A DNA stretch of 64,000 nt from Patescibacteria group bacterium (GTDB lineage Bacteria > Patescibacteriota > Patescibacteriia > UBA1558 > GWA2-36-10). The notes under the pieces were generated by a model that was not told the DNA's origin, did not search any database, and was given only the letters and a program-made list of their open reading frames with translations. The translations under genes and the position numbers were made by a program. Positions 3,577-43,388 of this stretch are shown here, in pieces. Numbering within the stretch: position 1 is the first letter of the stretch; each line of letters opens with the position of its first letter. Where the stretch lies: assembly GCA_018062885.1 (NCBI GenBank), contig JAGORJ010000001.1, positions 151 through 64,150 on the forward strand, written 5' to 3'.

Positions 3577-3582
3577 TTTTTC

Positions 3583-5253: not shown

Positions 5254-5276
5254 ATATTTTAGCTAAAATTAGCCTC

Positions 5277-5306: not shown

Positions 5307-5308
5307 GT

Positions 5309-5337: not shown

Positions 5338-5425
5338 ACAATGATTTGAACTAATTGAGTTGAAAAACACTTGATTAGCGTACATTGAAATTTGAGAACG
5401 AGAACAAATAAAAGCGGAGTGGAAA

Positions 5426-6802: not shown

Positions 6803-6822
6803 TCTCGTTCTCGAAACCTAAA

Positions 6823-6873
6823 CCGCCCACCACAAAATCCAATTGGACTAGTGGTGAGGCGGCTTTTTTCTTT
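6823..6873 (+). terminator. Rho-independent terminator ending the high-GC cassette
   Basis: ccgcccaccac ... gtggtgaggcgg stem (loop contains its own palindrome tccaattgga) followed by CTTTTTTCTTT. Confidence 0.6.
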
Positions 6874-6882
6874 ACGCAAAAG

Positions 6883-7251: not shown

Positions 7252-7258
7252 TTTTGAT

Positions 7259-7426
7259 ATGACGAACAATGAAAAAATAGAGAGAATAAAAGAAGTTTAT
7301 CTAGATTTTTTGGCCCAGCTGCAAGAGCTCAAGGCTGATTCTAAACAACAGAATTTAGCGCGTATTCAGGCTATTGAAAAACAAGAGATAGATAAAATTT
7401 TAGATAAAATTCATAAAGATTTTTAA
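7259..7426 (+). CDS. Possible 55-aa helical small protein (below the ORF-track length cut-off)
   Basis: ATG...TAA ORF MTNNEKIERIKEVYLDFLAQLQELKADSKQQNLARIQAIEKQEIDKILDKIHKDF, heptad-like, fills the gap before the giant gene. Confidence 0.25.
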   Translation: MTNNEKIERIKEVYLDFLAQLQELKADSKQQNLARIQAIEKQEIDKILDKIHKDF

Positions 7427-7437
7427 ATTTTAAGTAT

Positions 7438-10400
7438 ATGGCGAATAAAAGAGATAGACGAGAAGGCGGGGAAGATCAAACTCCTGTACCAGAAGCAGAG
7501 GCTTCTTCTGCTCAATTAAGAGAATACGCTGAAACTACTGTAGCTGGTATGCGGCAAGCTCTTGAGGCTTTTAAACGTGCGGTTGAATTAGCGGCTAATA
7601 GCGCTTCTTTGATGGGAAAAGCAGAGAGATTATTTGCAAAAGCAGAACAGAAAATTAATGGTTTGGCTAGCACCATTCAAATAGATAATGTAAAAGATGG
7701 TTTTGTAGCTAACTTAAGTGGTTTAAAGGATAATGTGCTTGAAAATAATGAATCTAATAGAGATGAGTCTATTAATAATCCAGATGTACTTACTCTCAAA
7801 AAGTCTATTAGTGTTAATGAGGTATTAACAGAAGAAGAAAGAAATAATTTTTTAGGAGATATTAAACCAGACATGGATCAAGCTTCTTTAGAAGCGCTTG
7901 GTGCACGATTTTTTGTATTAGCACAAGAAAAATACAAAAATAAAATGCAGTCTTATTATGATAGCTTTATAAGTTCCAGGCCAACACTTAAAGATAGAGT
8001 CGCACAAACATTTATTAAATACAGCAGGGATTTATCAGTACAAACAACAGTTTTTGGTATGAGAAATATTTTTGCTCGTTTTGAAGAAGTGTTGCGAGAT
8101 TACTCTTCTGCTAGTCCATCCTCTCCAGATTCTCAGGAGTCAGGCAATAGCCTTCTGGCTCAAAAATTAACTCCAGACAATATTTTAGCTTCAGTTGAAA
8201 ACAATCAGCCTATTTATGTCAAAGTACATGTAGATGGTGGTGATTTGGAAACCGATTGGTTTGTTGAAAATATAAATATAGATACGCAAAAAGTTTTTGT
8301 TAGTAAAAAAAATGGGGATGATATTTCTAGTAAATGGTTTGATGTTGATGATTTACTCAAGTGGGATTTAGAAGTTGATGAATCTAATCATGGTGATACG
8401 CCTGAATCAGAGCCAAGTTCAGAAGATATCTCAAAAGAGAAAACGGAACTAATTAAAAAAGCGGCTGAGGAATTAGACGCTACCTCTGATTCTTTGAGAG
8501 CTGATGATTATGGTATTAATGCTGAAAAGGCAGCAGATTTAGTTAGTAGTAGTATTGAAAAAATTCAAAATCTTGACCATAATTTGACTATCAACGAATT
8601 AAATCAAGCCATTACAGAAATTAATAGTAGTTTAGATGTAAACTTGGAAGCATTAAAAGTTTCGTTAATAGACCCCAAAGAAGTTCCATCTGGCGCAGCA
8701 GAAGAGCCAGTAGAGACACCAGCCCCAGAAGATCCTGTCTTATCTACTGAACAAACTCCAGAGGTGCAACAAGAAAAATTAAAACTTGTTGATATCAAGC
8801 CAGAAAAAATTAAGGAGATTTTAGAAAGCGCTAATGTTGTTGCTCAGCTAAAAGATTTATTACTTCAAAAAGAAGGTGCTGGTTCAGCAGGCTTACAAGA
8901 AAGTATTGTTGAAGTTTTACAAAATTATTTTACCGAACAAAATTTAAATTTAAACTCAGAAGCACAGGAAAATTTGAAGGCAATGATTGAAAATCTAGCC
9001 GCAGAAACCTCTGAGCAAGTCACTCAAGCTTTTGCTAGCTCTTTGGAACAGCAGGCTAAAATTGATTCGGGTTGGTTTGATAAAGTCAAACAACATATGT
9101 CTGCTTTGATGGGTGCTAGATTAGCTACCACCTTTGCCATTGGTATTGGCGCAACTGCTTTAGCGCCAGTTATAGCTCCTATGTTAGGCATGGCAGCTGT
9201 TGGTTGGGGTACGGTTGGCCTTGCTGGTGGTATAGCGGGTTTAGGTAGATATTTTGGTAATAAAATTTTTACTAAATTTCAGAAGTCTGAAAAAAATATT
9301 AATAAATTAAAATCAAAAGAAGAAGAAAAAATAGAGCAAAGAAAAGCGGTTTTACTAGAAGAAAACTTTATAAATGTTGATTCTTTGGCAGCTGTAATGG
9401 CTAACACCTTAAGAACAAGCACTTCAGAAGATTTTCGTACTGGTCAAATCTTAGATAGTGAAGGTAATTTTTCTGAAGAAGTTGCTGAAACTTTGAAAGC
9501 AAATATTCAAAATTTACTGGATAATGATCCGCGTTATGTTGGTTTAAGTCCAGAGGAAAAAATACTAAAAGCAAAACAACTCTTTACTATTTTGTCCATG
9601 GAGCTTATTCAGCAAAGTAGAAATATTTTTGATTTAGATAAAGACAAAGAAGATCCTGCTATGATCAAAGCTATGCAAAAGTTGCAAAGTGTGTTGTCTG
9701 GAAAAATTGAAGGAATAGACAAACTAAATGTTGATAATGATTTTGCACAAGCAGGCGCAGCTGCTTTGGTGGGTGCTGGTTTAAGAGTTGCTTATACTCA
9801 CAGTGCACTTGCAGCTTCAGCAACTTCAGCTTTGTCTGGTGCTTTGATGGGCTGGTCTTTAGCTTCGGCTGAAGCAAAGCATTCTATGCAAGAACAATAT
9901 TATAAGGATGTTGAGGAAATCTTAGATTTAGGCGAGAGTATGCTTAGTGATGTCGTTTCTAATAAAAATTTTGAAAATAAAAATGGAGAGTGGAAGCAAA
10001 AAAAATACATAGATTTAGAAAATAAGGTTATTCCTGTAAAATCAATGCTATCTTTAAAGCTTGGTGATAATTATATTCTCACAGACCCGGTACTTCGAGC
10101 TAGGGCAGAAAATTTTATTCATCAATTTGGTCAATATAAAACTCTTGAGATGAAGATTGAGGGTACCCGTATTTATGATCTTGATCAAAATCAACTCTTA
10201 AAAAATTTACAGAAGAATATAAATTCAAAAAATGACCATTCTGTAGAAGAAATAGCTAGAAACCAAAAATGGGATCAGCGTTTTACTAACTTGTTTAGGT
10301 ATTCTGCTACACTCACTGGCGCAGCTATTGGTGGAATTATTGGTTTTGCCTCTGGAGGGTCAATGGAGTCAGCTGAAAATAACACAGGGTCTTCTGCTCA

Positions 10401-12327
10401 AGAAACAAATACTGCGGACTCTTTAAGTGTAGCTTCACAAGATTCTACAAAAGTTTCGGCAGATAGCTTGAAGCAGTTTACGGAAAATCCAGCAGATTCC
10501 ACAGCAACAGAAGCATCTGATGTTGTAAATAATGCAAATGTAACAGAAAATTCTGGTTCTGCTTCAGTGTCGGGAAATTCTCCGGATCAAGCTGCTACAA
10601 CTGTGATTGGTACACATGAAGTTATTACCACAAAGACCGGCACTTTAGAAAATGTTATTCGTACAGAAGATGGTATGCAAGGCAATGATTCTATCTGGCG
10701 TTCTACCAAAGATATAATCAAAAGTGACCCAGAAAAATTCGGCTACACCGGTGATCATGATGATCTTGGAGCTATCTCAAAATTTGCAGAAGCCAAAACT
10801 GCTAGTTTAGTGAATCAGCTTGAGCAAGCACAAGGTGGTGATTTAGCTGATTTGGTACATAATGGTGATAAGGTGATTGTAAGTTTTGAGGATGGTAAGC
10901 CCGTTTTAAGCTTTGAAGATAGTTCTGGTATAAAAGCTGGTCATTTGCCTGATTTTACAGCCAAGACAGAAATACCAAGTCCAGAAACGATAATGCCTGA
11001 AACACCTTTGGTTCCAGAAGCTCCAGTATTACCAGTGGTGAATGCAGACGAGTTCTTTGGTGGTAAAATTGCTTATTCTGCTGATTTATTTAAAGAAGTG
11101 GCTGATAAGCCAGAAATTTTGAATCAAGTGGCAGAAAAAGTTTTTGAAAATGGCTCGCCAGAAGTACAGAAACAATTTTTACATGATTTGTATCCAGATT
11201 CTTTTATGGATAATACAAATAAAGCATCAGTATTTTTGCACTATGTGGAAAATGCACCAGATATTAGTGTGAAAGATTTAGACAGCGTCAAAGATTTAGA
11301 TACCTGGGTAAATAATTTTGATGCACAAGCTAATAGTGATGATTTACCAGGCAAAAATTGGGAAGTTAGATTATTGACTGATGATAAAGGTAAGACATTT
11401 TATGCTATGGTGCATGAAAGTAAAAATCGTCTTTTTGCTCAAGATGAATTTGAAGTCAATAATCTCAGTGGTGAAATTTTCAAACTAAAAGAAAAGGTTT
11501 TAGAAAACTGGCTTCAAAATTCAGAAAACAATTTAGTGCCAGCAGCAGAAGAATTACCACCTACAACGACCGCACCTGAAACTCCAGTTGCTCCAATTGA
11601 GCCGATTATTGAAGCTCCAGATACCAATGCTAATGAAGCACAAGGATTATCTAGTGAAGATTCAGCTACATCAGAAAATATACCAAGTTCAGGTAGGGTG
11701 GATGATATCCGGTTAGAGGGTGGCCAAACTCTAAATTTTAATTATGATGAGTCTGGTAAGGTGACTGGGATTGGTCTGGGGGGTGAAATTTCTGGTGAGC
11801 CTGAAGTATTAAGAGGTGATTTTCGTGCTATTTTGAGAATGAAGCTTGGTAATCTTAGGCCAGGTGACATCAGTGTGGTGTCGCAAGTTGCTCGAAAAGT
11901 TGATTTACAAATGGATTTTTTGAATAATTTAGTAGAAAATGGTAAAGCTGATACTCCAGAAGCAGAGTTCTTGGCTGATAGAATCTTGAAAGATGTTGCT
12001 GAAGTCGAAAAGAAATATGGCGATGTGTTTAAAGACATTAAAACGGAGGCTGATGGTAAATTAAGTTTTGTGGAGACTGTTCCAGAAGCTGCGCCCACAG
12101 CGCCAATCGAGACTCCAGTTGAAGCTCCAATAGAAACAGAAATATCGACTGGTGGTGGCGCTAATTTTAAGATTTTATCTCAAATGCAGGAAAACGCTAA
12201 ATTCTATGACACACAGGATAATGTATTTACCAAAATAGACGGTAAAATATTTAGAGCCGATCCTTTTGGTGAAATGACTATTGAGGTGAGGGGTCAAAAA
12301 GATTTAGATAATTTATATCAAAAATAA
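7438..12327 (+). CDS. Giant (1629 aa) acidic low-complexity protein with internal glycine-zipper TM hairpins and PExP-rich linkers
   Basis: No signal peptide; about 12% Asp+Glu; hydrophobic Gly/Ala-rich segments (ATTFAIGIGATALAPVIAPMLGMAAVGWGTVGLAGGIAGLG; AGAAALVGAGL...SGALMGWSLA; LTGAAIGGIIGFASGG); repeated P-E-x-P/APIE motifs. Confidence 0.7.
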   Translation: MANKRDRREGGEDQTPVPEAEASSAQLREYAETTVAGMRQALEAFKRAVELAANSASLMGKAERLFAKAEQKINGLASTIQIDNVKDGFVANLSGLKDNVLENNESNRDESINNPDVLTLKKSISVNEVLTEEERNNFLGDIKPDMDQASLEALGARFFVLAQEKYKNKMQSYYDSFISSRPTLKDRVAQTFIKYSRDLSVQTTVFGMRNIFARFEEVLRDYSSASPSSPDSQESGNSLLAQKLTPDNILASVENNQPIYVKVHVDGGDLETDWFVENINIDTQKVFVSKKNGDDISSKWFDVDDLLKWDLEVDESNHGDTPESEPSSEDISKEKTELIKKAAEELDATSDSLRADDYGINAEKAADLVSSSIEKIQNLDHNLTINELNQAITEINSSLDVNLEALKVSLIDPKEVPSGAAEEPVETPAPEDPVLSTEQTPEVQQEKLKLVDIKPEKIKEILESANVVAQLKDLLLQKEGAGSAGLQESIVEVLQNYFTEQNLNLNSEAQENLKAMIENLAAETSEQVTQAFASSLEQQAKIDSGWFDKVKQHMSALMGARLATTFAIGIGATALAPVIAPMLGMAAVGWGTVGLAGGIAGLGRYFGNKIFTKFQKSEKNINKLKSKEEEKIEQRKAVLLEENFINVDSLAAVMANTLRTSTSEDFRTGQILDSEGNFSEEVAETLKANIQNLLDNDPRYVGLSPEEKILKAKQLFTILSMELIQQSRNIFDLDKDKEDPAMIKAMQKLQSVLSGKIEGIDKLNVDNDFAQAGAAALVGAGLRVAYTHSALAASATSALSGALMGWSLASAEAKHSMQEQYYKDVEEILDLGESMLSDVVSNKNFENKNGEWKQKKYIDLENKVIPVKSMLSLKLGDNYILTDPVLRARAENFIHQFGQYKTLEMKIEGTRIYDLDQNQLLKNLQKNINSKNDHSVEEIARNQKWDQRFTNLFRYSATLTGAAIGGIIGFASGGSMESAENNTGSSAQETNTADSLSVASQDSTKVSADSLKQFTENPADSTATEASDVVNNANVTENSGSASVSGNSPDQAATTVIGTHEVITTKTGTLENVIRTEDGMQGNDSIWRSTKDIIKSDPEKFGYTGDHDDLGAISKFAEAKTASLVNQLEQAQGGDLADLVHNGDKVIVSFEDGKPVLSFEDSSGIKAGHLPDFTAKTEIPSPETIMPETPLVPEAPVLPVVNADEFFGGKIAYSADLFKEVADKPEILNQVAEKVFENGSPEVQKQFLHDLYPDSFMDNTNKASVFLHYVENAPDISVKDLDSVKDLDTWVNNFDAQANSDDLPGKNWEVRLLTDDKGKTFYAMVHESKNRLFAQDEFEVNNLSGEIFKLKEKVLENWLQNSENNLVPAAEELPPTTTAPETPVAPIEPIIEAPDTNANEAQGLSSEDSATSENIPSSGRVDDIRLEGGQTLNFNYDESGKVTGIGLGGEISGEPEVLRGDFRAILRMKLGNLRPGDISVVSQVARKVDLQMDFLNNLVENGKADTPEAEFLADRILKDVAEVEKKYGDVFKDIKTEADGKLSFVETVPEAAPTAPIETPVEAPIETEISTGGGANFKILSQMQENAKFYDTQDNVFTKIDGKIFRADPFGEMTIEVRGQKDLDNLYQK

Positions 12328-12355
12328 CCATTCGACTTCGCTCAGGATGACATGA

Positions 12356-12382
12356 AAATACCTGCTATTATGCGGGTATTTT
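12356..12382 (+). terminator. Terminator for the giant gene
   Basis: atacctgc-tatta-gcgggtat hairpin followed by TTTGATT. Confidence 0.45.
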
Positions 12383-12406
12383 GATTAAAGATAAATAAAA
12401 AAAGAA

Positions 12407-12436
12407 CCCGCCAAATCACTGCTGTGACTTGGCGGG
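12407..12436 (-). terminator. GC-rich terminator for minus-strand gene 12462-13394
   Basis: cccgccaa...ttggcggg stem; on the minus strand it is followed by TTTTTTTATTT. Confidence 0.55.
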
Positions 12437-12461
12437 CTTGCGCAATGCGCGACGGAAGGTT

Positions 12462-13394
12462 CTAGTGTCGGTGTGGGCGGGGCATGGCGCCGCGTTTGGA
12501 TTTCTCCTTTGCGGGCTGCTGCTCCGTTGTTGGTAAGGCGCTGAGTGAGATTTGCTCCGTGACGGGTTTTGGTACCGTCAAGGTTTGGATGAAGTCAAAG
12601 TACTGCACTACGCCGTGCTTGACTTTCATCTGCTCCCAGCGTTTGCCGCGAGTGGTGCTCAGTTGCTCATCGACGGCAGCGAGCCCGGTGTTTAGCAAGG
12701 TATTCATTGTGTCTTGCATACACCAGAGTTCGCTGTTTCTTGTTTCAGAGTTTATGAACTCACCGCGCCCGACGAATCCGTTCATGTCGATTGGCGTAGG
12801 CGTCCAGTCCTTGTTCTCCAAGACCTGGAGTCTCCCATCAAGCTCCTTGTCCTTCTCTTCCAGGGCCAGCAAGCGCTGGGCGTTGGGGGAGTTGGCCATG
12901 ATCTGGGCGATCATCGGCCGACTGTCTTGCTTGCTGTTGACGACTCGTTCAATCGCTCGACTCAATGAATCTACTTGGGCAGGAGTGTAGCCATTGACTG
13001 CAGTGTAGCCAGCAGATCCAAGAGCTGCATACATCGCACGACGTCCCATCCATTGGATATGGTTGGATTGCTGTGCGGCAGCGGTAGTAAACTTCGGGTA
13101 CCAGCATACCCGGTTGTCCTCGATCTTGCAGTCGCCCTTGTAATAGACTGTGTCCCCATTGGACACCTCAAATGTCAGGCGGTACTGCTTGATCGGCTGG
13201 CCCTTATTGTTCCATTTCACCAGCCATGGGGCCATCTCGGGCTTGGTTGGGGCCCAGCTGGCCATGGTGGCGGAGCTGTCGGGGTTGGTTTTGGTCAGGT
13301 TGCTGTCGTCGGCGTCTGCCTGGCTGATGTTGCTCGTGATGAGCGTCATGATGGCGATGAGAGCCATCCAAATGTACGAAGTGTGATTCTTCAT
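12462..13394 (-). CDS. Secreted protein of unknown function, high-GC (about 55%); probable start at second Met (MKNHTSYIW)
   Basis: ORF track gives 12462-13415; GGAAGGAAG RBS precedes the Met at 13394; signal peptide IWMALIAIMTLITSNISQADA; coiled-coil LLALEEKDKELDGRLQVLE. Confidence 0.6.
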   Translation of the reverse strand: MKNHTSYIWMALIAIMTLITSNISQADADDSNLTKTNPDSSATMASWAPTKPEMAPWLVKWNNKGQPIKQYRLTFEVSNGDTVYYKGDCKIEDNRVCWYPKFTTAAAQQSNHIQWMGRRAMYAALGSAGYTAVNGYTPAQVDSLSRAIERVVNSKQDSRPMIAQIMANSPNAQRLLALEEKDKELDGRLQVLENKDWTPTPIDMNGFVGRGEFINSETRNSELWCMQDTMNTLLNTGLAAVDEQLSTTRGKRWEQMKVKHGVVQYFDFIQTLTVPKPVTEQISLSALPTTEQQPAKEKSKRGAMPRPHRH

Positions 13395-13483
13395 GGGTCT
13401 TCCTTCCGTTCTCATATTTTTGGGCTAAAAGCCCGTTTGTGTAGGTGCGATTCGGCTAGAAACAGATTCTAGCTTGACTAAGT

Positions 13484-13512
13484 ATTATATACTATTTTAA
13501 AACATTTGTCAA
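13484..13512 (-). promoter_or_regulatory. Perfect-consensus TTGACA-N17-TATAAT promoter on minus strand driving 12462-13394
   Basis: rc of 13507-13512 is TTGACA, rc of 13484-13489 is TATAAT, 17-nt spacer. Confidence 0.5.
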
Positions 13513-13562
13513 GGATTTTTGGAACCGTCTAGTTTTGTTAGGCTTTTTGTAAAAATATAAGA

Positions 13563-13591
13563 TTGACAGATTTTGATTTTTAGTGTATGAT
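13563..13591 (+). promoter_or_regulatory. Near-consensus TTGACA-N17-TATGAT promoter driving 13682-14680
   Basis: TTGACA 13563-13568, 17-nt spacer, TATGAT 13586-13591; divergent from the preceding promoter. Confidence 0.5.
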
Positions 13592-13681
13592 AATAAATCA
13601 AACAATTTTGCCTTACAAGGCATTTGTTTGCTCGATCTTCGACAAAATCATCACACAAAAAGCATATCAATGGGGGAAAGC

Positions 13682-14680
13682 ATGAAAAACGCGATGTTGG
13701 GACTCATTTTTGGCCTTTTGGCCATGCTCCAGTTCGCTTCGGCAGCTGAAAAGGTGGGAACGTCTTTTCTTAATCGTTCTGATCTTGAGGTTTGGGGCAC
13801 CAGTCAGTTGGTTACCACTTTCGAGGGAGACAGTCTGGCGAGAAACAAATGGTCCTATGCTATTTTTGGTGCCGAGCTCTGGATCAACGGCCGTCAGTCC
13901 TTGGATGTCTTCTCGATCAAGGCTGAAGGACAGCTGGCCTATGGCATCAAGGCCGAGAATCTGCTGACAGAGGCTTTTGCTCAGCAAGATTGGCGTCAGG
14001 CTTCAGGTCTGGGTGCCAGTTTTCGAGCTGGACAGTACCAGCATTTGAGCAGGGCAAACTTCGCTCTTCCGCATGAAGCTGCTCTGCCTCGTCGGATGGA
14101 CGTGGAAGTGCCCTTTACCGAGAATCTCTCGGGCGGAGCATTTTCCGCCTACTGGGATCAACAGGATACGCTCAAGATTCCTGCTGGTTTCAAAATGAGC
14201 TGGGGCTTTGGTAAGTCCAGGCCGATGCCACAGCAGAGCTGGGACACGCTATTAGTAGCGTTTCCGGAACCGCGGTGGAGCTGGGGAGCTGCATACCACA
14301 TCACAGGGTATTTTGGGGCCACAGAGCTCCATCTGGGCTGGGAAAAGGAAGTGGGGCACAATGCTTCGCTTTATATTGCCCCCCATGTAAATGTGGACTT
14401 GGGCTTGAGCTGGACCTACAGTTTTCACCCACACTCCGAAATTGCGCCGGACAATCTCTACGCAGCCAAGCTCAGCTGGAGATTCTGGCAGTCGCAAACC
14501 GAGAAGCACAGCTTCTCGGTGGTCAGTGGCCTGGATTTCGGAGACCAAACCGAAGCCTTGCAAGCCTTGTTGGGCTATCAGTGGAAGCTGCCCATCGAAG
14601 GTTTCGTGAAGCTTCAGGCGGGTTATGATGGTCGCTATGAGCAGCCGGTGGTTGCTCTGCGTTACTATCTGAGACTGTGA
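13682..14680 (+). CDS. Secreted beta-strand-rich protein, outer-membrane beta-barrel-like, high-GC (about 57%); start at internal Met (MKNAMLGLIF)
   Basis: ORF track 13583-14680; GGGGGAAAG RBS before the ATG at 13682; signal peptide LAMLQFASAAEK; alternating hydrophobic/polar strands through the C-terminus (LSWRFW, SFSVVSGLDFG, LLGYQWKL, VVALRYYLRL). Confidence 0.55.
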   Translation: MKNAMLGLIFGLLAMLQFASAAEKVGTSFLNRSDLEVWGTSQLVTTFEGDSLARNKWSYAIFGAELWINGRQSLDVFSIKAEGQLAYGIKAENLLTEAFAQQDWRQASGLGASFRAGQYQHLSRANFALPHEAALPRRMDVEVPFTENLSGGAFSAYWDQQDTLKIPAGFKMSWGFGKSRPMPQQSWDTLLVAFPEPRWSWGAAYHITGYFGATELHLGWEKEVGHNASLYIAPHVNVDLGLSWTYSFHPHSEIAPDNLYAAKLSWRFWQSQTEKHSFSVVSGLDFGDQTEALQALLGYQWKLPIEGFVKLQAGYDGRYEQPVVALRYYLRL

Positions 14681-14700
14681 ATGTGTGATTCGATGAATTC

Positions 14701-14740
14701 AGCGGCGGGAACCTTTGGGATCCCGCCGCTTTCTTTTTTG
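14701..14740 (+). terminator. Strong GC-rich rho-independent terminator closing the high-GC island
   Basis: agcggcggga / tcccgccgct perfect 10-bp stem followed by TTCTTTTTTG. Confidence 0.65.
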
Positions 14741-14836
14741 TCCAAAATTGCTTAAAATATAGGTGTAAAGGGATGGGCTTTAAAAATCTTGACATTTATT
14801 TAAAAATGTGTTATTTTAATATGATATCTAAACAAT

Positions 14837-16369
14837 ATGTTTGATAATTTAGAACAAAAAAATATTCCTGAAAAAGCCAAAACTGGCCCTGAAAAATGGC
14901 AAGATTTTTGGCTTCCAAGCGAAAACAACGATTATCACCCACATTCACTGCAATTTAGACGCATGTTCTTTTATGCAAGTACTGCTGTATTGATGAAAGT
15001 GATTGTGGCTCTTTTTGTGGTTGCCCTGCCTATTACGGCTTGGTTGACACCGGATATTTTGACCCAAGAAAGTAAAAAGATAGTCTCCTTGACCAATGAT
15101 TTAAGACAAAGTCTCAATGTGCCCGTTTTGACAGAAAATCAGACTTTAAACCTTGCTGCCTATGGCAAGGCTGAAGATATGTTGTTACAACAATACTTTG
15201 CCCATATTGGTCCAGATGGCAAGAGAGTGTCTAGTTGGCTAAAGGATTTGGGATATGACTATTATATGGCTGGGGAAAACTTGGCTATGGGCTTTGCTTC
15301 AGCTGAAGAAGTGGTTGAGGCTTGGAAAAATAGTCCTACTCATTATGCTAACTTAGTTGACCCAAGTTTTACGGAAATTGGTGTCAGTATGCTCAGTGGA
15401 GAATATAATGGCATGGACACAAGCTTGGTAGCCCAGATGTTTGCTTATCCAAAAATCGTGGTGGTAGCTGATGAGATTGTAGTGCCAGCTCCAGAAAATC
15501 AAGTACCAACACCAGAAGTAGTGGAAACTCCAAAGCCAGTAGAAACTAAGATTATCCAAGCTACTAAAGTTCCTGTAACTCCAAAACCTGTTGTTGTTCA
15601 GACTCAAAATTCAGCTCCAGTTGTAGAAGTAGTAGAAAATCAACCGGCAAATGATTTGAAAAATGCCAACCTTGTTAGTGAAGAAAATATTGTTATTTCA
15701 GCCGGCATTGAAACGCCTGAGGAAACAGTAGTAGATTTATTAGAACCAAAAGAGGATTTAGTTTTAGAAAACGTAGAAGCTAATAATACAAGAGAGGAGA
15801 TTGTGACGCTTTCTGAGACTAATGAACTTGTGACAGATGTGACGCCACCTGAAGTGGATTTATTAAAAACAAAAATTATCATTGATCAGCCGGATAACAA
15901 GGCGGAGGCAATCATCAAGATAGATGCTTACCTAAGTCTTGATACACAAGAAGTTTTTGTTTCTTGGGCAGGAGAAAAAATTAGTCTGGCAAATGTTGGT
16001 GATGGTCATTGGGTGGCTTATGCTACTTTGACAGCTGAACAAGCCGACAAAATTTTGAATCCAATTATTTTGCCAAATATTACGGCGATTGATGCGTTTG
16101 CTAATAAAAGTGTAGTGGATTTAGGTCTTGAACAAATCAAGCCAGTTAAAACTTCTTTGCTTAATCAGTATTTTTTCCTCAAAAAAATCAATGCAGATGG
16201 AGCAGGAACTTTGTTTAATATTTCAATCATTTATTATAAAATTTTTGCTTTACTGTTGAGTATTGCTTTGGCTCTGAATATTTTTGTTCATATCAAAAAG
16301 CAAAATTATAGAGTAATTGGTTCAGCGGCAATGTTTTTGATTTTATTAGCCCTGTTAATCATTTTTTAA
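14837..16369 (+). CDS. CAP/SCP (PR-1-like, YkwD-type) domain protein with N- and C-terminal TM anchors and Pro/Val-rich linker
   Basis: CAP core NLAAYGKAEDMLLQQYFAH...GENLAMGF...AWKNSPTHYANLVDPSFTEIGV; PTPEVVETPKPVETK linker; C-terminal hydrophobic helix. Confidence 0.75.
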   Translation: MFDNLEQKNIPEKAKTGPEKWQDFWLPSENNDYHPHSLQFRRMFFYASTAVLMKVIVALFVVALPITAWLTPDILTQESKKIVSLTNDLRQSLNVPVLTENQTLNLAAYGKAEDMLLQQYFAHIGPDGKRVSSWLKDLGYDYYMAGENLAMGFASAEEVVEAWKNSPTHYANLVDPSFTEIGVSMLSGEYNGMDTSLVAQMFAYPKIVVVADEIVVPAPENQVPTPEVVETPKPVETKIIQATKVPVTPKPVVVQTQNSAPVVEVVENQPANDLKNANLVSEENIVISAGIETPEETVVDLLEPKEDLVLENVEANNTREEIVTLSETNELVTDVTPPEVDLLKTKIIIDQPDNKAEAIIKIDAYLSLDTQEVFVSWAGEKISLANVGDGHWVAYATLTAEQADKILNPIILPNITAIDAFANKSVVDLGLEQIKPVKTSLLNQYFFLKKINADGAGTLFNISIIYYKIFALLLSIALALNIFVHIKKQNYRVIGSAAMFLILLALLIIF

Positions 16370-16402: not shown

Positions 16403-19354
16403 ATGAAGAAAATAATCAGTGTTATTACTATCAGTAGTTTAATTTTCAGCGCCAGCATGAGCTATACTTTGCCAGCTTTGGCTATGGGTGTAGAAGTTGC
16501 AGAAAAAGGCGTTGATCTTATCTCTGATCAAATTAAAGAAAATATTAAGGATGGCCCTAGTGTGCCTGGCATCTCAGATTCTAGTGGCGCTAGCTCGTCT
16601 TCTAGTAAAAATAAGGCTAATGCGCGCAATCAAAGGCCTGTATTAGAAAGCATTGCTTTCAAAATGTCACCAGAACAAATGTCCGATGATCCAAGTGATT
16701 GGCAAACTTTGTATGGTAACTTAAGTAGAGGATTTTTTATTAATATTCCTACCAGTAGTTTTCATTATGGCTATCAGTTTATAAAAATCTCTGACAGTAG
16801 TGTAAATACTGGCATTGCCTCTGGCAGTCATCCTTTTACTTTGATTTCTGCTCCAGCTGCTTTTGATACTTATTATCAAGCCTCAGATCCGATGCATGCA
16901 ATCGCCAATGGTGAAGCGCCGATATTTTATATGCGCTCCCATGATGATAATTCATTGAGCTTGCTCAATGGTTTGAACAGTCAAAGACATTGGAGAATAG
17001 GTAGTACTTGGCCAGCTGGTGAGTACAGAGTTTCTGGTCGTTTGATGGGTGAAAATGGTTTAGACAGTGAGCCTATCATTATGTCATTTTTCATTTCTCA
17101 CAATGATGACAATGGTGATCATAATTATGTGCCTGAAACAGTTGTGGATAACTATACAGTAGCATCTGGCGCTTTACTAAATGTTAATGTAGCTAATGGC
17201 ATTTTATCTAATGATATTGATTTAGACGGTCCAGATGAATTAATAGCCTTAAGAACTAGTATTGTTGATGGTTTGGAGACTGAAGATTTATTGCACGGTA
17301 GATTTAATCTACGCGCCGACGGTAGTTTTGCTTACCAGTCAGTAGATGGTTTTGCTGGTACTGCGGTATTTTATTATCGAGCTTTTGATGGGCAAGATTC
17401 TTCTCGAACAACCATTGTGACTATCAATGTCACAGCTACAGACTCCAATCAAGAACCGATAGCAGTAGAAGATTCTTATACAGTACGATCTGGTTCTTTG
17501 TTAAATCTTACTGAAGATAATGGTGTTTTATCAAATGACATTGATTTAGATGGTCCAAATGATTTAACAGCTAAAAGAACTAGTATAGTTATTGGCATTG
17601 ATCCTATCCCAGATTTATTGCACGGTAAATTCACTTTCCGTTCAGATGGTAGCTTTGCTTACACATCAGTAGATGGTTTTGTCGGTGTAGCTAAATTTTG
17701 GTACAAAGCTTTTGATGGTGAAGATTATTCTCGAGCAACTTTAGTGACTATCAATGTCACAGCCTCAGACGCAAATCAAGCGCCATTGGCCGTCACAGAT
17801 TCTTATTCAGTACGATCTGGTTCTTTGTTAAATCTTACTGAAGATAATGGTGTTTTATCAAATGACATTGATTTAGATGGTCCAAATGATTTAACAGCTA
17901 AAAGAACTAGCATAGTTATTGGCATTGATCCTATCCCAGATTTATTGCACGGTAAATTCACTTTCCGTTCAGATGGTAGCTTTGCTTACACATCAGTAGA
18001 TGGTTTTGTCGGTGTAGCTAAATTTTGGTACAAAGCTTTTGATGGTGAAGATTATTCTCGAGCAACTTTAGTGACTATCAATGTCACAGCCTCAAGCTCA
18101 AATCAAGCGCCGGTAGCTGTAGCTGATACTTATGAAACTGTAAATAACAGTGACTTAAATGTTTCAGTTGCTAGTGGAGTTTTAGTAAATGATACAGACA
18201 ACGAGCATCAAGCTTTAAGAGCGGTTTTAAATACCACGGTGTCTAACGGTGTCTTGACTTTAAATTCAGATGGCTCGTTTAATTATAATGCCACTGATGG
18301 TTTTGTTGGTAATGATGTCTTTACTTATCGTGCTTTTGATGGCGCTTTGTACTCAGAGATTGTTAATGTGAGCATCAATGTCACAGCTCCATCAAGTGGT
18401 GGTGGCGGCGGAGGAGGCGGCGGCGGATCTACACGTAATCCTCGTAATGCCAATATTGTCATCAACAATAACGCCGTTTCTACCAATACTGTTTCGGTCA
18501 ATTTGACTTTATCAGCTGACAATATGATCGCTACTTATGCACCTTTAGAAATGCGTATTAGTAATTTTTCCAACTTTAATAACGCTTCTTGGCGTCCTTA
18601 TGCCACAACTACTTCTTGGACTTTATTGAGTGGTAATGGCAACAAAACTGTGTATGCTCAGTTCAAAAATAAAAGAGGTGTAAGCAGCAATGTTTCTGAC
18701 AGTATTCAGCTTATCGCTGGTCAAGTTTTGGGCGACAGAGATTGTAGTGGAGTTGGCGGTAGTTTGTTCTCTTTGTTAAATCGTAAAGATGCAACTGTTT
18801 ATTATATCAGCTCAGATTGTAAAAAACACGCTTTCCCTGATCCAAAAACTTATTACACTTGGTATAATGATTTTAGCAAGGTTGTTAAAGTGACACCTAG
18901 TGAATTAGATTTATATTTAGAAGGTAATGTTATCTCTTATCGTCCAGGTATCAAGCTGGTGAAAACAGTGGATACAAATAGAGTTTATGCCGTTGAGCCT
19001 GATGGCGTTTTGCGTCATATCACTTCTCCAGCTATGGCTAGAGCTTTATATGGTGATAATTGGCAAAATTTAGTACAAGATGTTATCACTGGTTATTTTG
19101 CTACTACCTATACTAAAGGATCTTCTTTGAATGATTTATTACCTACAGGTACTTTAGCTAAAGAGCCTGATAATGATACTATCTACTATGTCCAAAATGG
19201 TCAGAAGCGTCCTTTCTCTAGCTTGGCTGCCTTTAATGCCAACTATTTCCGTATGAAAGATGTGATAATTAAAAATAGTTTAGCAAATTATGGCGTGGGT
19301 TCTACTATTAATCGTTTTGATGCTTCATTGTTGCCTTACCCATTGATTAACTAA
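16403..19354 (+). CDS. Secreted 983-aa surface adhesin-like protein with 5 tandem about 100-aa Ig-like/cadherin-like ('tandem-95' type) repeats, poly-Gly linker and C-terminal repeated module
   Basis: Signal peptide; repeats of V-x-D-x-Y-x-V...GVLSNDIDLDGP...GSFAY-x-SVDGF-x-G...AFDG...INVTA; GGGGGGGGGG at aa 666-675. Confidence 0.75.
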   Translation: MKKIISVITISSLIFSASMSYTLPALAMGVEVAEKGVDLISDQIKENIKDGPSVPGISDSSGASSSSSKNKANARNQRPVLESIAFKMSPEQMSDDPSDWQTLYGNLSRGFFINIPTSSFHYGYQFIKISDSSVNTGIASGSHPFTLISAPAAFDTYYQASDPMHAIANGEAPIFYMRSHDDNSLSLLNGLNSQRHWRIGSTWPAGEYRVSGRLMGENGLDSEPIIMSFFISHNDDNGDHNYVPETVVDNYTVASGALLNVNVANGILSNDIDLDGPDELIALRTSIVDGLETEDLLHGRFNLRADGSFAYQSVDGFAGTAVFYYRAFDGQDSSRTTIVTINVTATDSNQEPIAVEDSYTVRSGSLLNLTEDNGVLSNDIDLDGPNDLTAKRTSIVIGIDPIPDLLHGKFTFRSDGSFAYTSVDGFVGVAKFWYKAFDGEDYSRATLVTINVTASDANQAPLAVTDSYSVRSGSLLNLTEDNGVLSNDIDLDGPNDLTAKRTSIVIGIDPIPDLLHGKFTFRSDGSFAYTSVDGFVGVAKFWYKAFDGEDYSRATLVTINVTASSSNQAPVAVADTYETVNNSDLNVSVASGVLVNDTDNEHQALRAVLNTTVSNGVLTLNSDGSFNYNATDGFVGNDVFTYRAFDGALYSEIVNVSINVTAPSSGGGGGGGGGGSTRNPRNANIVINNNAVSTNTVSVNLTLSADNMIATYAPLEMRISNFSNFNNASWRPYATTTSWTLLSGNGNKTVYAQFKNKRGVSSNVSDSIQLIAGQVLGDRDCSGVGGSLFSLLNRKDATVYYISSDCKKHAFPDPKTYYTWYNDFSKVVKVTPSELDLYLEGNVISYRPGIKLVKTVDTNRVYAVEPDGVLRHITSPAMARALYGDNWQNLVQDVITGYFATTYTKGSSLNDLLPTGTLAKEPDNDTIYYVQNGQKRPFSSLAAFNANYFRMKDVIIKNSLANYGVGSTINRFDASLLPYPLIN
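17471..18094 (+). repeat. Near-identical tandem direct DNA repeat, period 327 bp, two copies, inside the adhesin gene
   Basis: 17471-17767 and 17798-18094 differ at only a few positions and encode identical 99-aa Ig-like modules. Confidence 0.8.
18398..18427 (+). repeat. (GGN)10 simple-sequence tract encoding Gly10
   Basis: ggtggtggcggcggaggaggcggcggcgga in frame with the adhesin. Confidence 0.8.
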
Positions 19355-41251: not shown

Positions 41252-41325
41252 TGGCTCGGGGATAGGGAATCGAACCCCAATTGACTGGACCAAAACCAGT
41301 TGTCCTACCATTAGACGATCCCCGA
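41252..41325 (-). tRNA. tRNA-Gln (anticodon TTG) with U1:A72 and encoded CCA
   Basis: rc reads TCGGGGATCGTCTAATGGTAGGACAACTGGTTTTGGTCCAGTCAATTGGGGTTCGATTCCCTATCCCCGAGCCA; anticodon loop ttTTGgt; hairpin plus T-run terminator at 41233-41250. Confidence 0.75.
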
Positions 41326-41398: not shown

Positions 41399-41407
41399 TG
41401 TTATAAT
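41399..41407 (+). promoter_or_regulatory. Extended -10 promoter (TGtTATAAT) upstream of the pilin operon
   Basis: TGT 41399-41401 plus TATAAT 41402-41407, about 43 nt before the first pilin ATG. Confidence 0.4.
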
Positions 41408-41450
41408 ATACTTATAGTTTTTATTTACATATAGAACAAAAACTTTATGA

Positions 41451-42128
41451 ATGTTTAAAAGATTTGCAAGCGGTTTTACTTTGATAGAGTTGATGATTGT
41501 TATTGCCCTCATCGCTTTACTTGGTGCATCTGTTTTGGTAGCAGTTGATCCAGCACGCAGGATTGGGGAAGCTCGTAATGCTGTCAGAGCAAGTGATGCT
41601 GAGAGTATCAAGAATGCCTTAGACTATTATGTCGGTGAGTATCATAGTTTACCTGTAGCTCTAGCAAGTAAAGCTGATAATACAAACTACATGATAGCTG
41701 CTGCCGGAGACACGTCTGGTTCTACTGTAAGTTGTGAAGCAGTTGGTGATATTGTAAAAGTTGATATTACTAATGGTGCTAGTAATTTATTTAATTTTAT
41801 TCCAACTATACCGATAGATCCAGAGCAGAGCTCTCCATATACAAATGGCTCGGGCTATTATTGCAAAAAACAAGGAAATAAAATAATTGATATTAAGCCT
41901 TGTAATGTTTATACTGCGCCAGTAGAGGAGGTAGTAGTTGTGCCTGTATGTGGAAATGGTGTGGTGGAGGGTGCAGAAGTATGTGATGCTGGAGTTAATA
42001 ATAGATCGACAAATGTTTGTGCTATGAGTCCAGATTGTCAGGCAAACAACTCAAGTTGTTCTAGTGGCTTCTATTGTAGGACTGACTGTACGACTTGTGT
42101 GCAATGCACAGCCTCCTGCAGTGGTTAA
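41451..42128 (+). CDS. Type IV pilin-like protein with Cys-rich C-terminal domain
   Basis: Prepilin leader plus GFTLIELMIVIALIALL class III signal; C-terminal segment with 12 Cys (VCGNGVVEGAEVCDAG...CVQCTASCSG). Confidence 0.8.
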   Translation: MFKRFASGFTLIELMIVIALIALLGASVLVAVDPARRIGEARNAVRASDAESIKNALDYYVGEYHSLPVALASKADNTNYMIAAAGDTSGSTVSCEAVGDIVKVDITNGASNLFNFIPTIPIDPEQSSPYTNGSGYYCKKQGNKIIDIKPCNVYTAPVEEVVVVPVCGNGVVEGAEVCDAGVNNRSTNVCAMSPDCQANNSSCSSGFYCRTDCTTCVQCTASCSG

Positions 42129-42135
42129 ATTTTAA

Positions 42136-42687
42136 ATGAAATTTTTAAACAAACAACATATATTTTATCAGAGTGGATTCACTCTGATAGAGCTTATCAT
42201 AGTCATTGCTGTCATCGCACTACTTGCCGCTTCTGTTTTTGTGGCTGTTGATCCTGCTAAGCGCATTGGGCAAGCTCAAGACGCTCAGCGTTGGTCTGAC
42301 GTGACCGCGATCGCTGAGGCAATTCAATTGTATAAAGCAGATCATGGCGGTGAATTTCCTACTTCGACTAGCGATGGTGTGTTTACAATGTATGGCTTAG
42401 GTAGCCTTACCCGTTATTATTTGCTAGGTATCGGTACTGTAAGTAATAATGATCTTGATAGTGATAATTGTGCTAATTATCCAGGCAGTCTGGAGCCAGA
42501 GGGTGTTTTGTTATCTAATTTAGTACCAACTTATTTACCTACTATGCCAGTAGATCCTACAGGACTACAAAATAATGGTAGAACTACTGGTTATTATATA
42601 AGGTTTCTAAATAGTCCAACTAAATTTGAGATTGGAGTTTGTGAGGAAAGTGATTATGCTACTGCCTCTATTTATGTTCAAAGATAA
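42136..42687 (+). CDS. Type IV pilin-like protein (short variant, 2 Cys)
   Basis: GFTLIELIIVIAVIALLAASVFVAV prepilin N-terminus. Confidence 0.8.
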   Translation: MKFLNKQHIFYQSGFTLIELIIVIAVIALLAASVFVAVDPAKRIGQAQDAQRWSDVTAIAEAIQLYKADHGGEFPTSTSDGVFTMYGLGSLTRYYLLGIGTVSNNDLDSDNCANYPGSLEPEGVLLSNLVPTYLPTMPVDPTGLQNNGRTTGYYIRFLNSPTKFEIGVCEESDYATASIYVQR

Positions 42688-42695
42688 AATTTTAA

Positions 42696-43388
42696 ATGAA
42701 ATTTTTAAATAAAAAATATATATTATATCAAAAAGGTTTTACATTAATAGAATTAATCATTGTTATAGCCGTCATCGCGCTACTTGCCGCTTCTGTTTTT
42801 GTGGCGGTTGATCCAGCGCGCAGGATTGGTGAAGGGCGTAATTCTGTCAGGGCTAGCGATACAGTGAATATTAAAAAAGCACTGGAGTTTTATGTTGGTG
42901 AATACAAAACTTTACCGCCAGCTCTTTTAAGTTTACAAGATAATACAAATTATCTAATTGCGGCAGCTGGTGATAATGCTGGCGGTAGTGTTTATTGTGC
43001 TTTGCCTGGTAATCTGACTAAGGTGGATATTACTAATGGTGCTAGTGAATTTTTTAATTTTTTGCCAACCATACCAGTTGATCCATCACAAGGCCCAGCT
43101 TATCCAAATGGCTCGGGCTATTATTTTAAAAAGCAAGGAAATAAAATTTTAGAAGTAAATGCTTGCAATACTTATTCCAATGTACCGGTGTGTGGTAATG
43201 GTGTAGTGGAAGGTAATGAAGTTTGTGATGCGGGTGGAAATAATAGGCCGATCATAGATCCTGTTTTTGGTTATTGTCCAAGTTTATTTTTTTGTTTTAA
43301 TGCTAATAATTCTGTTTGCTCTAATGATAATAGTTGCACAGATGATTGTAGTGCCTGTGATCAATGTGCTGGAGATTGTCCCATTTAG
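42696..43388 (+). CDS. Type IV pilin-like protein with Cys-rich C-terminal domain (paralog of 41451-42128)
   Basis: GFTLIELIIVIAVIALL N-terminus; shared blocks ALDYYVGEY, DITNGAS, VCGNGVVEG.EVCDAG; 14 Cys in the last 70 aa. Confidence 0.8.
   Translation: MKFLNKKYILYQKGFTLIELIIVIAVIALLAASVFVAVDPARRIGEGRNSVRASDTVNIKKALEFYVGEYKTLPPALLSLQDNTNYLIAAAGDNAGGSVYCALPGNLTKVDITNGASEFFNFLPTIPVDPSQGPAYPNGSGYYFKKQGNKILEVNACNTYSNVPVCGNGVVEGNEVCDAGGNNRPIIDPVFGYCPSLFFCFNANNSVCSNDNSCTDDCSACDQCAGDCPI

Follow-up and report, generated by a model that had tools for sequence, protein, structure and literature searches.

The stretch of DNA that we analysed, a 64 kb window from a Patescibacterium, an ultrasmall symbiont, carries a cluster of three genes (ORF1, ORF2 and ORF3; Table 1), each of which forms a single unbroken reading frame on the plus strand and which together hold all of the prepilin N-termini in the window. 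An original prediction for this DNA had ascribed it to the CPR, had described three genes with the canonical G-FTLIEL prepilin N-terminus lying next to a tRNA-Gln, and had credited two of the three with a Cys-rich C-terminal domain; each of these points holds, and the Cys-rich module proved genuine and conserved in homologues. The position that it gave for the start of the cluster, 41399, falls outside the coding sequence, on the promoter-like sequence TGTTATAAT; the ATG of ORF1 stands at 41451. Inspection of TGTTATAAT suggests that it may be the promoter of a three-gene operon. A promoter consensus scan missed this sequence, which has no -35 hexamer at the proper spacing, and a scan for terminator-like sites found none between ORF1, ORF2 and ORF3 and a single weak match within ORF3. 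None of the larger ORFs of the window corresponds to pilB, pilC, pilM, pilT, pilD, Dsb or VKOR. A GC-rich stretch at 12-16 kb of the window was checked for rRNA and is not rRNA.

Table 1. Features of the pilin locus, in window coordinates.
Feature	Position	Strand	Source or remark
tRNA-Gln (anticodon TTG)	41252-41325	-	ARAGORN; Rfam RF00005, 58.5 bits
Extended -10-like sequence TGTTATAAT	41399-41407	+	Read by eye; 44 nt before ORF1 ATG
ORF1, modular type IV pilin, 225 aa, 13 Cys	41451-42128	+	ORF call
ORF1 Cys-rich C-terminal module, residues 166-225, 10 Cys	41946-42125	+	Alignment
ORF2, 'bare' type IV pilin, 183 aa, 2 Cys, without C-terminal module	42136-42687	+	
ORF3, modular type IV pilin, 230 aa, 12 Cys, ORF1 paralog	42696-43388	+	
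ORF3 Cys-rich module, residues 165-230, ending CSACDQCAGDCPI	43188-43385	+	
Direct repeat copy A: ORF1/ORF2 junction and ORF2 5' end (leader, α1N codons)	42127-42274	+	
Direct repeat copy B: ORF2/ORF3 junction and ORF3 5' end	42687-42834	+	

Examination of the N-termini shows that all three proteins carry a short, positively charged leader that ends in glycine (MFKRFASG-FTLIEL in ORF1, MKFLNK..(S/K)G-FTLIEL in ORF2 and ORF3), followed by a hydrophobic segment with a glutamate at mature position 5. All three exceed the cut-offs of the prepilin families PF07963 (28.9-32 bits, against 21.2) and TIGR02532 (25-32 bits, against 16.3). The leader spans M1-G8 in ORF1 and M1-G14 in ORF3, and the α1 helix and globular head of ORF1 occupy residues 9-152. 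An AlphaFold2 model of ORF1 built on 116 sequences (pLDDT 84-96 at residues 11-150) has a long α1 helix and a sheet of four to five strands, as expected of the pilin 'lollipop' fold, in which an α1 helix of ~50 residues packs on a four- to five-stranded antiparallel sheet. Among the 116 related pilins F9, L11, E13 and C151 never vary, and at least 90% keep G8, T10 and C95. The head cysteines of ORF1, Cys95 and Cys151, both recur in ORF2 and ORF3 and are near-universal among related pilins, marking them as a candidate D-region-type disulfide. The α1 helix of ORF1 and ORF3 is canonical and conserved as strongly as in bare pilins, and that of ORF2 is nearly identical. ORF2, moreover, is 47% identical to P0136, the last pilin in a full type IV pilus (T4P) operon of a related Candidatus Nomurabacteria genome; the gene order on that contig is PilB-PilC-prepilin genes-PilM-two small pilins. 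The genes pilB, pilC and pilM, which the original prediction had proposed seeking elsewhere in the genome, are absent from the window but present in a related genome, whose operon ends in ORF2-type pilins. Together, these sequence features support the assignment of ORF1, ORF2 and ORF3 as type IV pilin-class genes.

Beyond the head, ORF1 and ORF3 carry an additional segment. Alignment of the ORF1 pilin module to the bare pilin P0136 stops at the last head cysteine (residue 152), after which a variable linker of 13 residues (153-165), the least conserved segment of the protein (mean identity 0.49), leads into a module of 60 residues (60-66 across ORF1 and ORF3). ORF2 and some 90 related pilins do without this module, making ORF1 and ORF3 modular pilins in the sense of Raynaud et al. 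(2021). The module cysteines follow the pattern C-x10-C-x11/16-C-x5-C-x6/7-C-x5/6-C-x3-C-x2-C-x2-C-x3-C, and the ORF1 module comprises a DUF4215-like unit (residues ~166-191) and a cap (residues 197-225) that packs six cysteines into 21 residues and closes with C-x2-C-x2-C-x3-C, a terminal spacing that is invariant in nine aligned tails. We counted 13 cysteines in ORF1, including the non-conserved C138, 12 in ORF3 and 2 in ORF2; the original prediction had given 12-14 for the two Cys-rich pilins. The two proteins are paralogs, as had been proposed, with 63% identity and all 12 common cysteines in register. Of the sequence blocks said to unite them, DITNGAS and VCGNGVVEGxEVCDAG occur in both; ALDYYVGEY is confined to ORF1, its counterpart in ORF3 being ALEFYVGEY.

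The resemblance to EGF, knottin or metallothionein domains that had been suggested for the module is not borne out: its spacing fits none of them, and Pfam returned no match to such families at E <= 10. EGF domains have a C-x-C near the fifth cysteine, metallothioneins are free of aromatic residues and group their cysteines as CxC or CC, and the last loop of knottins has at least four residues; the tail has neither CxC nor CC, has no histidine, contains both phenylalanine and tyrosine, and closes with a loop of three residues.

The Cys-tailed architecture is rare. A search of 5.8e9 proteins returned nine matches, one of them ORF1 itself and the other eight metagenomic, and the architecture is present on at least eight independent contigs from NCBI, JGI, ENA and Logan. 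When genome contigs were scanned with the family alignment, no relative came to light, placing the family outside the GTDB species representatives at that sensitivity. All 12 cysteines, comprising the head pair and the module, are invariant across the homologues and across further contigs with the same architecture; Cys positions that differed between the paralogs, named by the original prediction as fatal to its claim, were not found on alignment. The additional cysteine of ORF1, C138, occurs in no homologue. Nucleotide changes between close relatives are mostly silent: orthologues of P0006 differ by 12 synonymous and no non-synonymous changes, and the window differs from locus L001 by 8 synonymous and 2 non-synonymous changes in the ORF1 part and by 6 synonymous and none non-synonymous in the body of ORF3, while the changes between L003 and L004 are synonymous or clustered in a short 3' tract. 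Amino-acid changes between close strains are not enriched in the tail, so that nothing points to an arms race, and diversifying selection was not detected between them. These comparisons confirm, at the level of sequence, that the Cys-rich extension is real and selected, both paralogs evidently being under purifying selection. Modelling of the tail gave low confidence (pLDDT 42-64 with 116 sequences; 31-48 with the 10-sequence family alignment, whose mean was 58), and a Foldseek search of the PDB with the 10-sequence AlphaFold2 model returned only noise. Our literature searches found no earlier description of Cys-rich pilin tails in the CPR.

Inspection of the module indicates that its first ~26 residues resemble a single unit of DUF4215 (the 'Myxococcus cysteine-rich repeat'; PF13948, IPR011936). 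In Pfam the similarity is below threshold, with ORF1 scoring 13 bits (E 0.13) against a gathering threshold of 27 bits and weak matches in five of nine tails (best E 0.02). In an exhaustive search, positions 1 to ~32 of the tail profile matched multi-repeat proteins, nine of the ten tested being PF13948 proteins (E down to 2e-48), and hhalign of the tail start against DUF4215 repeats gave a probability of 98% over 26 columns, a partly circular comparison in that the repeat set was drawn from the tail-profile matches. The shared features are the motif CG(N/D)G-x5-E-x-CD-x-G-x-N, the C-x10-C spacing and an extracellular, Cys-rich setting: the DUF4215 consensus reads CGDG...E.CDDGN, with C-x10-C-x10..13-C-x3-C, and ORF1 and ORF3 read CGNGVVEGxEVCDAGxNN, with C-x10-C followed by x11 or x16 and then x5. 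DUF4215 proteins, however, have 3-45 tandem repeats, whereas the pilins have one copy, in which the usual x3 between third and fourth cysteines is x5 and which is followed by a six-cysteine cap without DUF4215 similarity. For the start of the module the resemblance suggests homology to DUF4215, sub-threshold in Pfam but backed by comparison of profiles. A degenerate second repeat in the second half of the tail was also considered and rejected (hhalign probability only 11%). Large surface proteins of the CPR were already known to bear weak similarity to the DUF4215 repeat (PMC4736985), and 12 copies of the repeat occur in a protein of diatom adhesive trails (10.1101/2023.03.06.531300).

The remainder of the module belongs to a scaffold of eight core cysteines that is common to other Patescibacterial pilin subfamilies and to which the ORF1/ORF3 family adds one Cys pair, gained together relative to its sisters. 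Cys-tailed pilins of this wider kind include P0101, a 240-aa protein at L050, P0119, P0147 and P0163 (24 Cys), a group made up of P0105, P0132, P0141, P0177 and L005, and P0073, which has four DUF4215 repeats. Their tails likewise open with CG(D/N)G..E.CD and share the core C-x5/6-C-x3-C-x2-C, and at L050 the Cys-tailed pilins also stand in tandem pairs. They differ from ORF1 and ORF3 in being only ~35-40% identical in the pilin module, in having 8, 9 or more tail cysteines, and in lacking the additional pair from which CxxCxxCxxxC arises; all are unannotated and uncharacterised. The number of conserved cysteines is even, as is the total in 102 of 111 related pilins. These even counts, the near-universal head pair and the paired gain lead us to infer that the module and head cysteines form disulfides, and from the paired gain a bond involving C196 and C219 is predicted.

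Comparison with relatives shows that the locus itself is variable. The same tRNA-Gln flanks pilin genes in L003, L004, L041, L042 and L047, forming a conserved left-hand landmark beyond which relatives have between one and three pilins of the bare or the Cys-tailed type. L041 and L042 have only ORF2-type pilins at this site, and L001 and L049 have only Cys-tailed pilins, without a bare pilin between them. In L001, a strain 98% identical to ours, ORF2 is missing through recombination between pilin 5' ends. A repeat search (family D3) identified direct repeats A and B, which are 148 nt long, 80% identical and spaced 560 bp apart, and whose junctions, TTTTAAATGAAATTTTTAAA, are identical in both copies; the L001 crossover maps to ~42202-42210 in copy A and ~42762-42770 in copy B. 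The locus is thus a tRNA-Gln-adjacent accessory pilin locus that is reshuffled by homologous recombination between conserved pilin 5' ends, a simple means by which pilin gene content comes to differ between close strains.

We consider it probable that ORF1 and ORF3 serve as modular type IV pilins, presenting a small, disulfide-knotted module as a binding surface. Both proteins would be inserted by a Sec-dependent route and cleaved by a prepilin peptidase encoded elsewhere, and the pilin module would then polymerise into type IV pili, perhaps with bare pilins such as ORF2. The C-terminal module, held by about five disulfides, would be exposed at the filament tip or along its length, where it could form a compact, protease-resistant surface for binding a host cell or substrate. 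Since pilus machinery, a prepilin peptidase and a disulfide oxidoreductase are all missing from the window, assembly and oxidation are steps that we infer; a CPR-enriched MdbA-like oxidoreductase has been proposed to fold pilins together with VKOR (10.1101/335083). The sequence organisation suggests that the module is probably displayed on the pilus surface, and by analogy with known modular pilins the function most reasonably proposed for it lies in attachment or host recognition.

The closest known systems share this design. In Streptococcus sanguinis, the extra module is a vWA in PilB and a lectin in PilC (Raynaud et al. 2021, PMC8179133), each on a protein with a class-III signal peptide, an α1 helix, a small β-sheet head, a short linker and an added C-terminal module, the same order of parts as in ORF1 and ORF3. 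The modules of ORF1 and ORF3 differ in being tiny (60-66 aa), Cys-dense and under every Pfam threshold. According to that study the design occurs widely, several of its examples coming from the CPR; its Dataset S1 lists 264 architectures, among which IPR011936/PF13948 does not appear. Unlike the pilins described there, ORF1 and ORF3 flank a bare pilin. Extra C-terminal domains also occur on the Patescibacterial pilins PilX1 and PilX2 of the Saccharibacterium TM7x, of which PilX2 is required for efficient host binding (PMC11623550). The PilX domains, however, are large lectin-like β-jelly-rolls or β-propellers encoded inside T4P loci, whereas ORF1 and ORF3 have a small, predicted Cys knot and their genes are not near any machinery.

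Alternatively, ORF1 and ORF3 could build a filament of their own as its structural (major) pilins, with the tail acting as armour or cross-linker through protease or thermal stability, bundling or intermolecular disulfides. The fully canonical α1 helix, the L001 and L049 loci with Cys-tailed pilins alone, the retention of both paralogs under purifying selection and the odd 13th cysteine of ORF1, which could bond intermolecularly, are all compatible with such a filament. In relatives, however, bare pilins of 160-170 aa are by far the commonest (75 of 111 in the 160-179 aa class) and it is the bare type that stands at the end of the T4P operon, whereas the Cys-tailed type is rare, as the nine database matches attest; C138 is conserved in no homologue, and a flexible, poorly conserved linker better suits a displayed module. 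We therefore regard a structural role as unlikely, while still giving it some weight. Somewhat less likely again is a broader proposal that builds on the recombination described above, in which the locus would be a recombining cassette system whose bare and Cys-knot pilins are swapped, lost and hybridised to alter surface display and host or surface range, the module representing an unrecognised, pilin-specific adhesin family.

The products might also be pseudopilins belonging to a secretion or competence (Com-type) system, in which case the module would capture DNA or substrate near the envelope. NCBI names the protein 'type II secretion system protein', the GspG and GspH models of NCBIfam score 25-35 bits, a sub-threshold similarity seen for ComGC as well, and earlier work has connected CPR pili with DNA uptake (10.1101/335083). 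These scores nevertheless fall far under the equivalog cut-offs of 75-89 bits, and most of the matches owe their score solely to the N-terminal helix, those to GspG and a single one to ComGC extending to residues ~57-78. The PilB, PilC, PilM and large modular minor pilins of the related operon are typical of T4P, the CPR are without outer membrane and secretin (10.1101/335083), and T4P-2 pilin mutants of the one Patescibacterium tested were normal in competence (PMC11623550). A pseudopilin role consequently appears improbable.

Metal binding by the tail, whether as an Fe-S cluster at C-x2-C-x2-C-x3-C(-P) or as a cap that holds Zn, Cu, Fe or metal-sulfide minerals in a redox or metal-related pilus role, strikes us as very improbable. 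The end of ORF3, CSACDQCAGDCP, fits the ferredoxin consensus CxxCxxCxxxCP, the motif spacing is the same in the nine aligned tails, the cap is Cys-dense, and the only PDB sequence matches of the tail profile are two 4Fe-4S motifs of PsaC. These PsaC matches are non-significant (E 1.6-9.4), however, and there is no Fer4 match in Pfam, leaving the module short of a 4Fe-4S assignment; an ORF1-type orthologue at L049 has C-x2-C-x2-C-x5-C and sister subfamilies have C-x2-C-x5-C, the third cysteine of the motif being one of the two gained together, as for an added disulfide. Pilins, moreover, cross the membrane unfolded via Sec, whereas Fe-S proteins must be assembled in the cytoplasm and exported by Tat, and the tail offers neither histidine nor metallothionein-type CxC or CC clusters. 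The terminal ferredoxin-like motif therefore looks coincidental. Finally, we discount an artefactual tail arising from a frameshift (the origin that the original prediction had itself set against its claim), the joining of an adjacent ORF or a chimeric assembly: the segment is in frame and contiguous in single uninterrupted ORFs, recurs in eight independent homologues and on at least as many contigs, changes mostly synonymously between close orthologues, and has homologous counterparts on other pilin subfamilies.

Overall, our analysis is well supported as a refinement of annotation rather than a surprise, and provides a new example of the known modular pilin design. Type IV pili are the best-supported organelles of host contact in Patescibacteria, and extra-domain pilins have been found experimentally to matter for host binding. 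To the catalogue of modular pilins the locus adds a compact, putatively Cys-knotted module that InterPro-based surveys miss because it lies under domain thresholds; tails of this sort are found across several Patescibacterial pilin subfamilies. Should the module prove to be an adhesin, it would offer a small, expressible handle with which to find the hosts of uncultivated Nomurabacteria-like organisms.

Type IV pilin genes occur at a single site in the window, where six-frame translation finds prepilin N-termini only for ORF1, ORF2 and ORF3, three consecutive genes separated by gaps of 7 and 8 nt. Each product begins with a short basic leader up to a glycine, followed by FTLIEL(I/M)IVIA, and each exceeds the curated cut-offs of both PF07963 and TIGR02532, in agreement with the original prediction of pilin genes; similarity to GspG, GspH and ComGC falls far under the cut-offs and is mostly confined to the N-terminal helix region. 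The start of 41399 proposed for the cluster has to be moved, as there is no start codon at that position, which consists of TGTTATAAT sequence. The spacers ahead of ORF2 (42129-42135) and ORF3 (42688-42695) are identical and A/T-only, with TTTTAA preceding the ATG, and neither these spacers nor the region before ORF1 holds a Shine-Dalgarno-like sequence. ORF1 and ORF3 share 63% identity, compared with 35%, mostly from the helix, for ORF1 and ORF2; the three proteins contain 13 (ORF1), 2 (ORF2) and 12 (ORF3) cysteines.

Coordinates of the pilin genes, of comparison loci in relatives and of other window features
Feature	Sequence	Position	Strand	Description
tRNA-Gln(TTG)	window	41252-41325	opposite to pilin ORFs	
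ORF1	window	41451-42128	+	225 aa
ORF2	window	42136-42687	+	183 aa
ORF3	window	42696-43388	+	230 aa
tRNA-Gln	L041	4035-4108		inverted relative to window, L042, L004 and L047
Pilin region	L001 (JGI 3300056850)	1-1166		compared with window 42127-42834
ORF3-type gene	L003	1478-2146		
ORF3-type gene	L004	5929-6597		
Tandem Cys-tailed pilins	L050	7186-8990		240 aa; 329 aa with 24 Cys
P0073	L040	1664-2683		339-aa prepilin-type protein
T4P operon	L044 (SRR12358675)	1-10495		ends with P0136
Very large protein	window	7438-12327		probable surface protein
GC-rich island	window	12000-16000		GC 0.44-0.48 (0.33-0.39 elsewhere)
Island ORF	window	12462-13415	-	317 aa, signal peptide, no Pfam match
Island ORF	window	13583-14680	+	365 aa, signal peptide, no Pfam match
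CAP-domain protein	window	14837-16369		follows the two island ORFs
Very large protein	window	16403-19354		probable surface protein

Alignment of the pilin module with P0136, a bare ORF2-type pilin, extends as far as residue 152, beyond which a linker and an additional module begin. AlphaFold2 gave a poor model from 10 sequences; with 116 sequences, residues 11-150 form a long α1 helix and a sheet at pLDDT 84-96, the tail still remaining at 42-64. ORF1 and ORF3 are thus modular pilins as defined previously (PMC8179133).

When ORF1 without its helix was searched against 5.8e9 proteins, nine matches were returned: ORF1 and eight homologues, of which seven are complete and share its architecture and the eighth is a 142-aa fragment. 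In the family alignment, head cysteines 95 and 151 are invariant, as are ten tail cysteines (167, 178, 190, 196, 203, 209, 213, 216, 219 and 223), spaced C-x10-C-x11/16-C-x5-C-x6/7-C-x5/6-C-x3-C-x2-C-x2-C-x3-C; the thirteenth cysteine of ORF1, C138, is found in ORF1 alone. Mean pairwise identity is 0.73-0.78 in the helix and head, 0.49 in the linker, 0.66 in the first half of the tail and 0.50 in its last 29 residues (0.37 without the Cys columns), indicating that in the tail the Cys scaffold is invariant and the loops vary. Closely related orthologues are under purifying selection, with synonymous and non-synonymous changes numbering 12 and 0 for P0006 orthologues (L047 versus L048), 6 and 0 for the ORF3 body and 8 and 2 for part of ORF1 (both window versus L001), and some of the synonymous sites fall within the tail. 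The predicted Cys-rich C-terminal module is therefore real and conserved; homologues of the same architecture, together with the synonymous changes within the tail, exclude a frameshift or other artefact as its origin. The ORF3-type genes of contigs L003 and L004 are identical except at five codons (3 non-synonymous, 2 synonymous), all in the last 20 residues, a clustering that points to a short conversion tract covering the 3' end of the Cys cap.

The first part of the tail resembles DUF4215 (PF13948), the 'Myxococcus cysteine-rich repeat', which to our knowledge has no known function or structure. The segment VCGNGVVEGxEVCDAGxNN matches the Pfam model below threshold (13 bits versus a cut-off of 27), with matches in five of nine tails (best E 0.02). 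When 1.84e9 representatives were searched exhaustively by HMMER, the tail profile had 89 matches. Only the family's own representative (E 4.9e-27) covered the whole tail; most others aligned to positions 1 to ~32 alone, in many copies per protein, and a few reached further. Of ten matches tested, nine proved to be genuine DUF4215 repeat proteins (E as low as 2e-48; repeat spacing C-x10-C-x10..13-C-x3-C), the tenth having no Pfam match. Profile-profile comparison relates the first 26 tail residues to DUF4215 repeats at 98% probability, a partly circular value because the repeat set was drawn from the tail-profile matches, and the last 29 residues at only 11%. DUF4215 is present in a diatom adhesive-trail protein (10.1101/2023.03.06.531300), and large, Cys-rich extracellular proteins from CPR Peregrinibacteria have been reported to resemble it weakly (PMC4736985).

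Similar tails recur on other Patescibacterial pilins. The full-length family profile retrieves 436 pilins at E <= 1e-5. Among the best 111 non-family matches, the majority are bare pilins of ~160-170 aa, 63 of them with 2 Cys and 30 with 4, and 16 matches have at least 6; other related pilins carry Fn3, PF07603 or PF09603 modules. Tails beginning CG(D/N)G..E.CD occur in P0099, in P0101, in a group comprising P0105, P0132, P0141, P0177 and a protein of L005, and in the tandem L050 pair (the 240-aa protein and P0119, with 24 Cys). The L050 genes belong to a different subfamily from another Patescibacterial lineage, and a CGDG..E.CD start and a C-x5/6-C-x3-C-x2-C core are shared by their tails. 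Tail alignment reveals a common 8-Cys scaffold, C-x10-C ... C ... C-x5/6-C-x3-C-x2-C-x5-C. P0073, with the N-terminus ASFSLIEL and, at the other end, four clear DUF4215 repeats, is on its domain content an independent pilin-DUF4215 fusion; two overlapping small genes upstream (185 and 173 aa) have no family matches, and the arrangement looks like a minor-pilin operon.

Beyond the 8-Cys scaffold, the window family has two cysteines, C196 and C219, gained together, as an added disulfide would look. Their gain also creates a ferredoxin-like C-x2-C-x2-C-x3-C(-P), and the only PDB sequence matches of the tail profile are PsaC 4Fe-4S motifs, at non-significant E-values of 1.6-9.4. However, an Fe-S or metal site is very improbable, because an ORF1-type orthologue on L049 has x5 rather than x3 after the third Cys of the motif, this Cys is absent altogether from sister subfamilies, no Fer4 family is matched, and pilins pass through Sec in unfolded form. 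The suggested knottin or metal-binding affinity of the module is not borne out. An oxidised module with candidate disulfide bonds fits the even number of conserved cysteines, the near-universal head pair and the even Cys count in 102 of the 111 relatives, as well as the MdbA-like oxidoreductase with VKOR, enriched in CPR, that has been proposed as a pilin folding factor (10.1101/335083).

The pilin content of the locus varies among relatives within a recurrent order of flavoprotein, tRNA-Gln, pilin(s), DUF1761 and DEAD helicase, which is complete in the window, lacks DUF1761 in L042 and is partly visible on shorter contigs. The window carries Cys-tailed, bare and Cys-tailed genes; L041 has two bare pilins, L042 one, L047 a Cys-tailed then a bare pilin, L003 and L004 a Cys-tailed gene before the contig end, and L001 and L049 an ORF1-type gene directly followed by an ORF3-type gene. 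The DNA of L001 matches that of the window at 97-98% identity but lacks exactly one 560-bp unit, tracking the 5' copy of ORF2 to ~42202-42210 and the ORF3 copy from ~42762-42770. The crossover lies within the α1 codons of a 148-nt, 80%-identical direct repeat, and the resulting hybrid gene (P0008) joins the ORF2 leader to the ORF3 body, the ORF2 body being gone. This junction indicates that recombination between the ORF2 and ORF3 5' ends removed the ORF2 body, and thus that homologous recombination reshuffles the pilin repertoire at this site. Judging from these close relatives, the locus can do without the bare ORF2 gene, so it would be unsafe to take ORF2 for the sole major pilin. This clean recombination polymorphism and the recurrent, pilin-specific Cys scaffold add slightly to the interest of the locus.

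No pilB, pilC, pilM, pilT, pilD, Dsb or VKOR gene lies within the 64-kb window, which encodes housekeeping proteins including TIM, aldolase, CTP synthase, RecJ, ProRS and MreBC, along with several large surface proteins. The source is named 'Patescibacteria group bacterium' at NCBI; the flavoprotein upstream of the pilins has 74-76% identity with its counterparts in two uncultured lake bins and 67% with the one in a Candidatus Nomurabacteria MAG. P0136, NCBI-assigned to Candidatus Nomurabacteria, shares 47% identity and the C-terminus ESDYATASIYVQR with ORF2, and in Logan contigs it closes a complete T4P operon. There, PilB and PilC are followed by three prepilin-type genes (of 171, 682 and 428 aa, the 428-aa one with Laminin_G_3), a Laminin_G_3 protein of 589 aa, a PilM-fusion of 581 aa and two small pilins of 161 and 164 aa. 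This operon probably shows the form of the machinery missing from the window.

By analogy with modular pilins, of which 264 architectures, several from CPR, have been described (PMC8179133), and with PilX2, a pilin that bears an extra domain at its C-terminus and is required for efficient binding to the host in the only Patescibacterium tested genetically (PMC11623550), we infer that ORF1 and ORF3 would present a small module, knotted by disulfides, on the pilus, where it would serve attachment. IPR011936/PF13948 is absent from those 264 architectures.

Elsewhere in the window, a GC-rich island, also containing spurious overlapping ORFs, may be foreign DNA; an rRNA origin was ruled out, as there is no Rfam match. 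Of the two very large proteins flanking it, one (1629 aa) has no Pfam match at all, and the other (983 aa) carries four Big_9/cadherin-like repeats.
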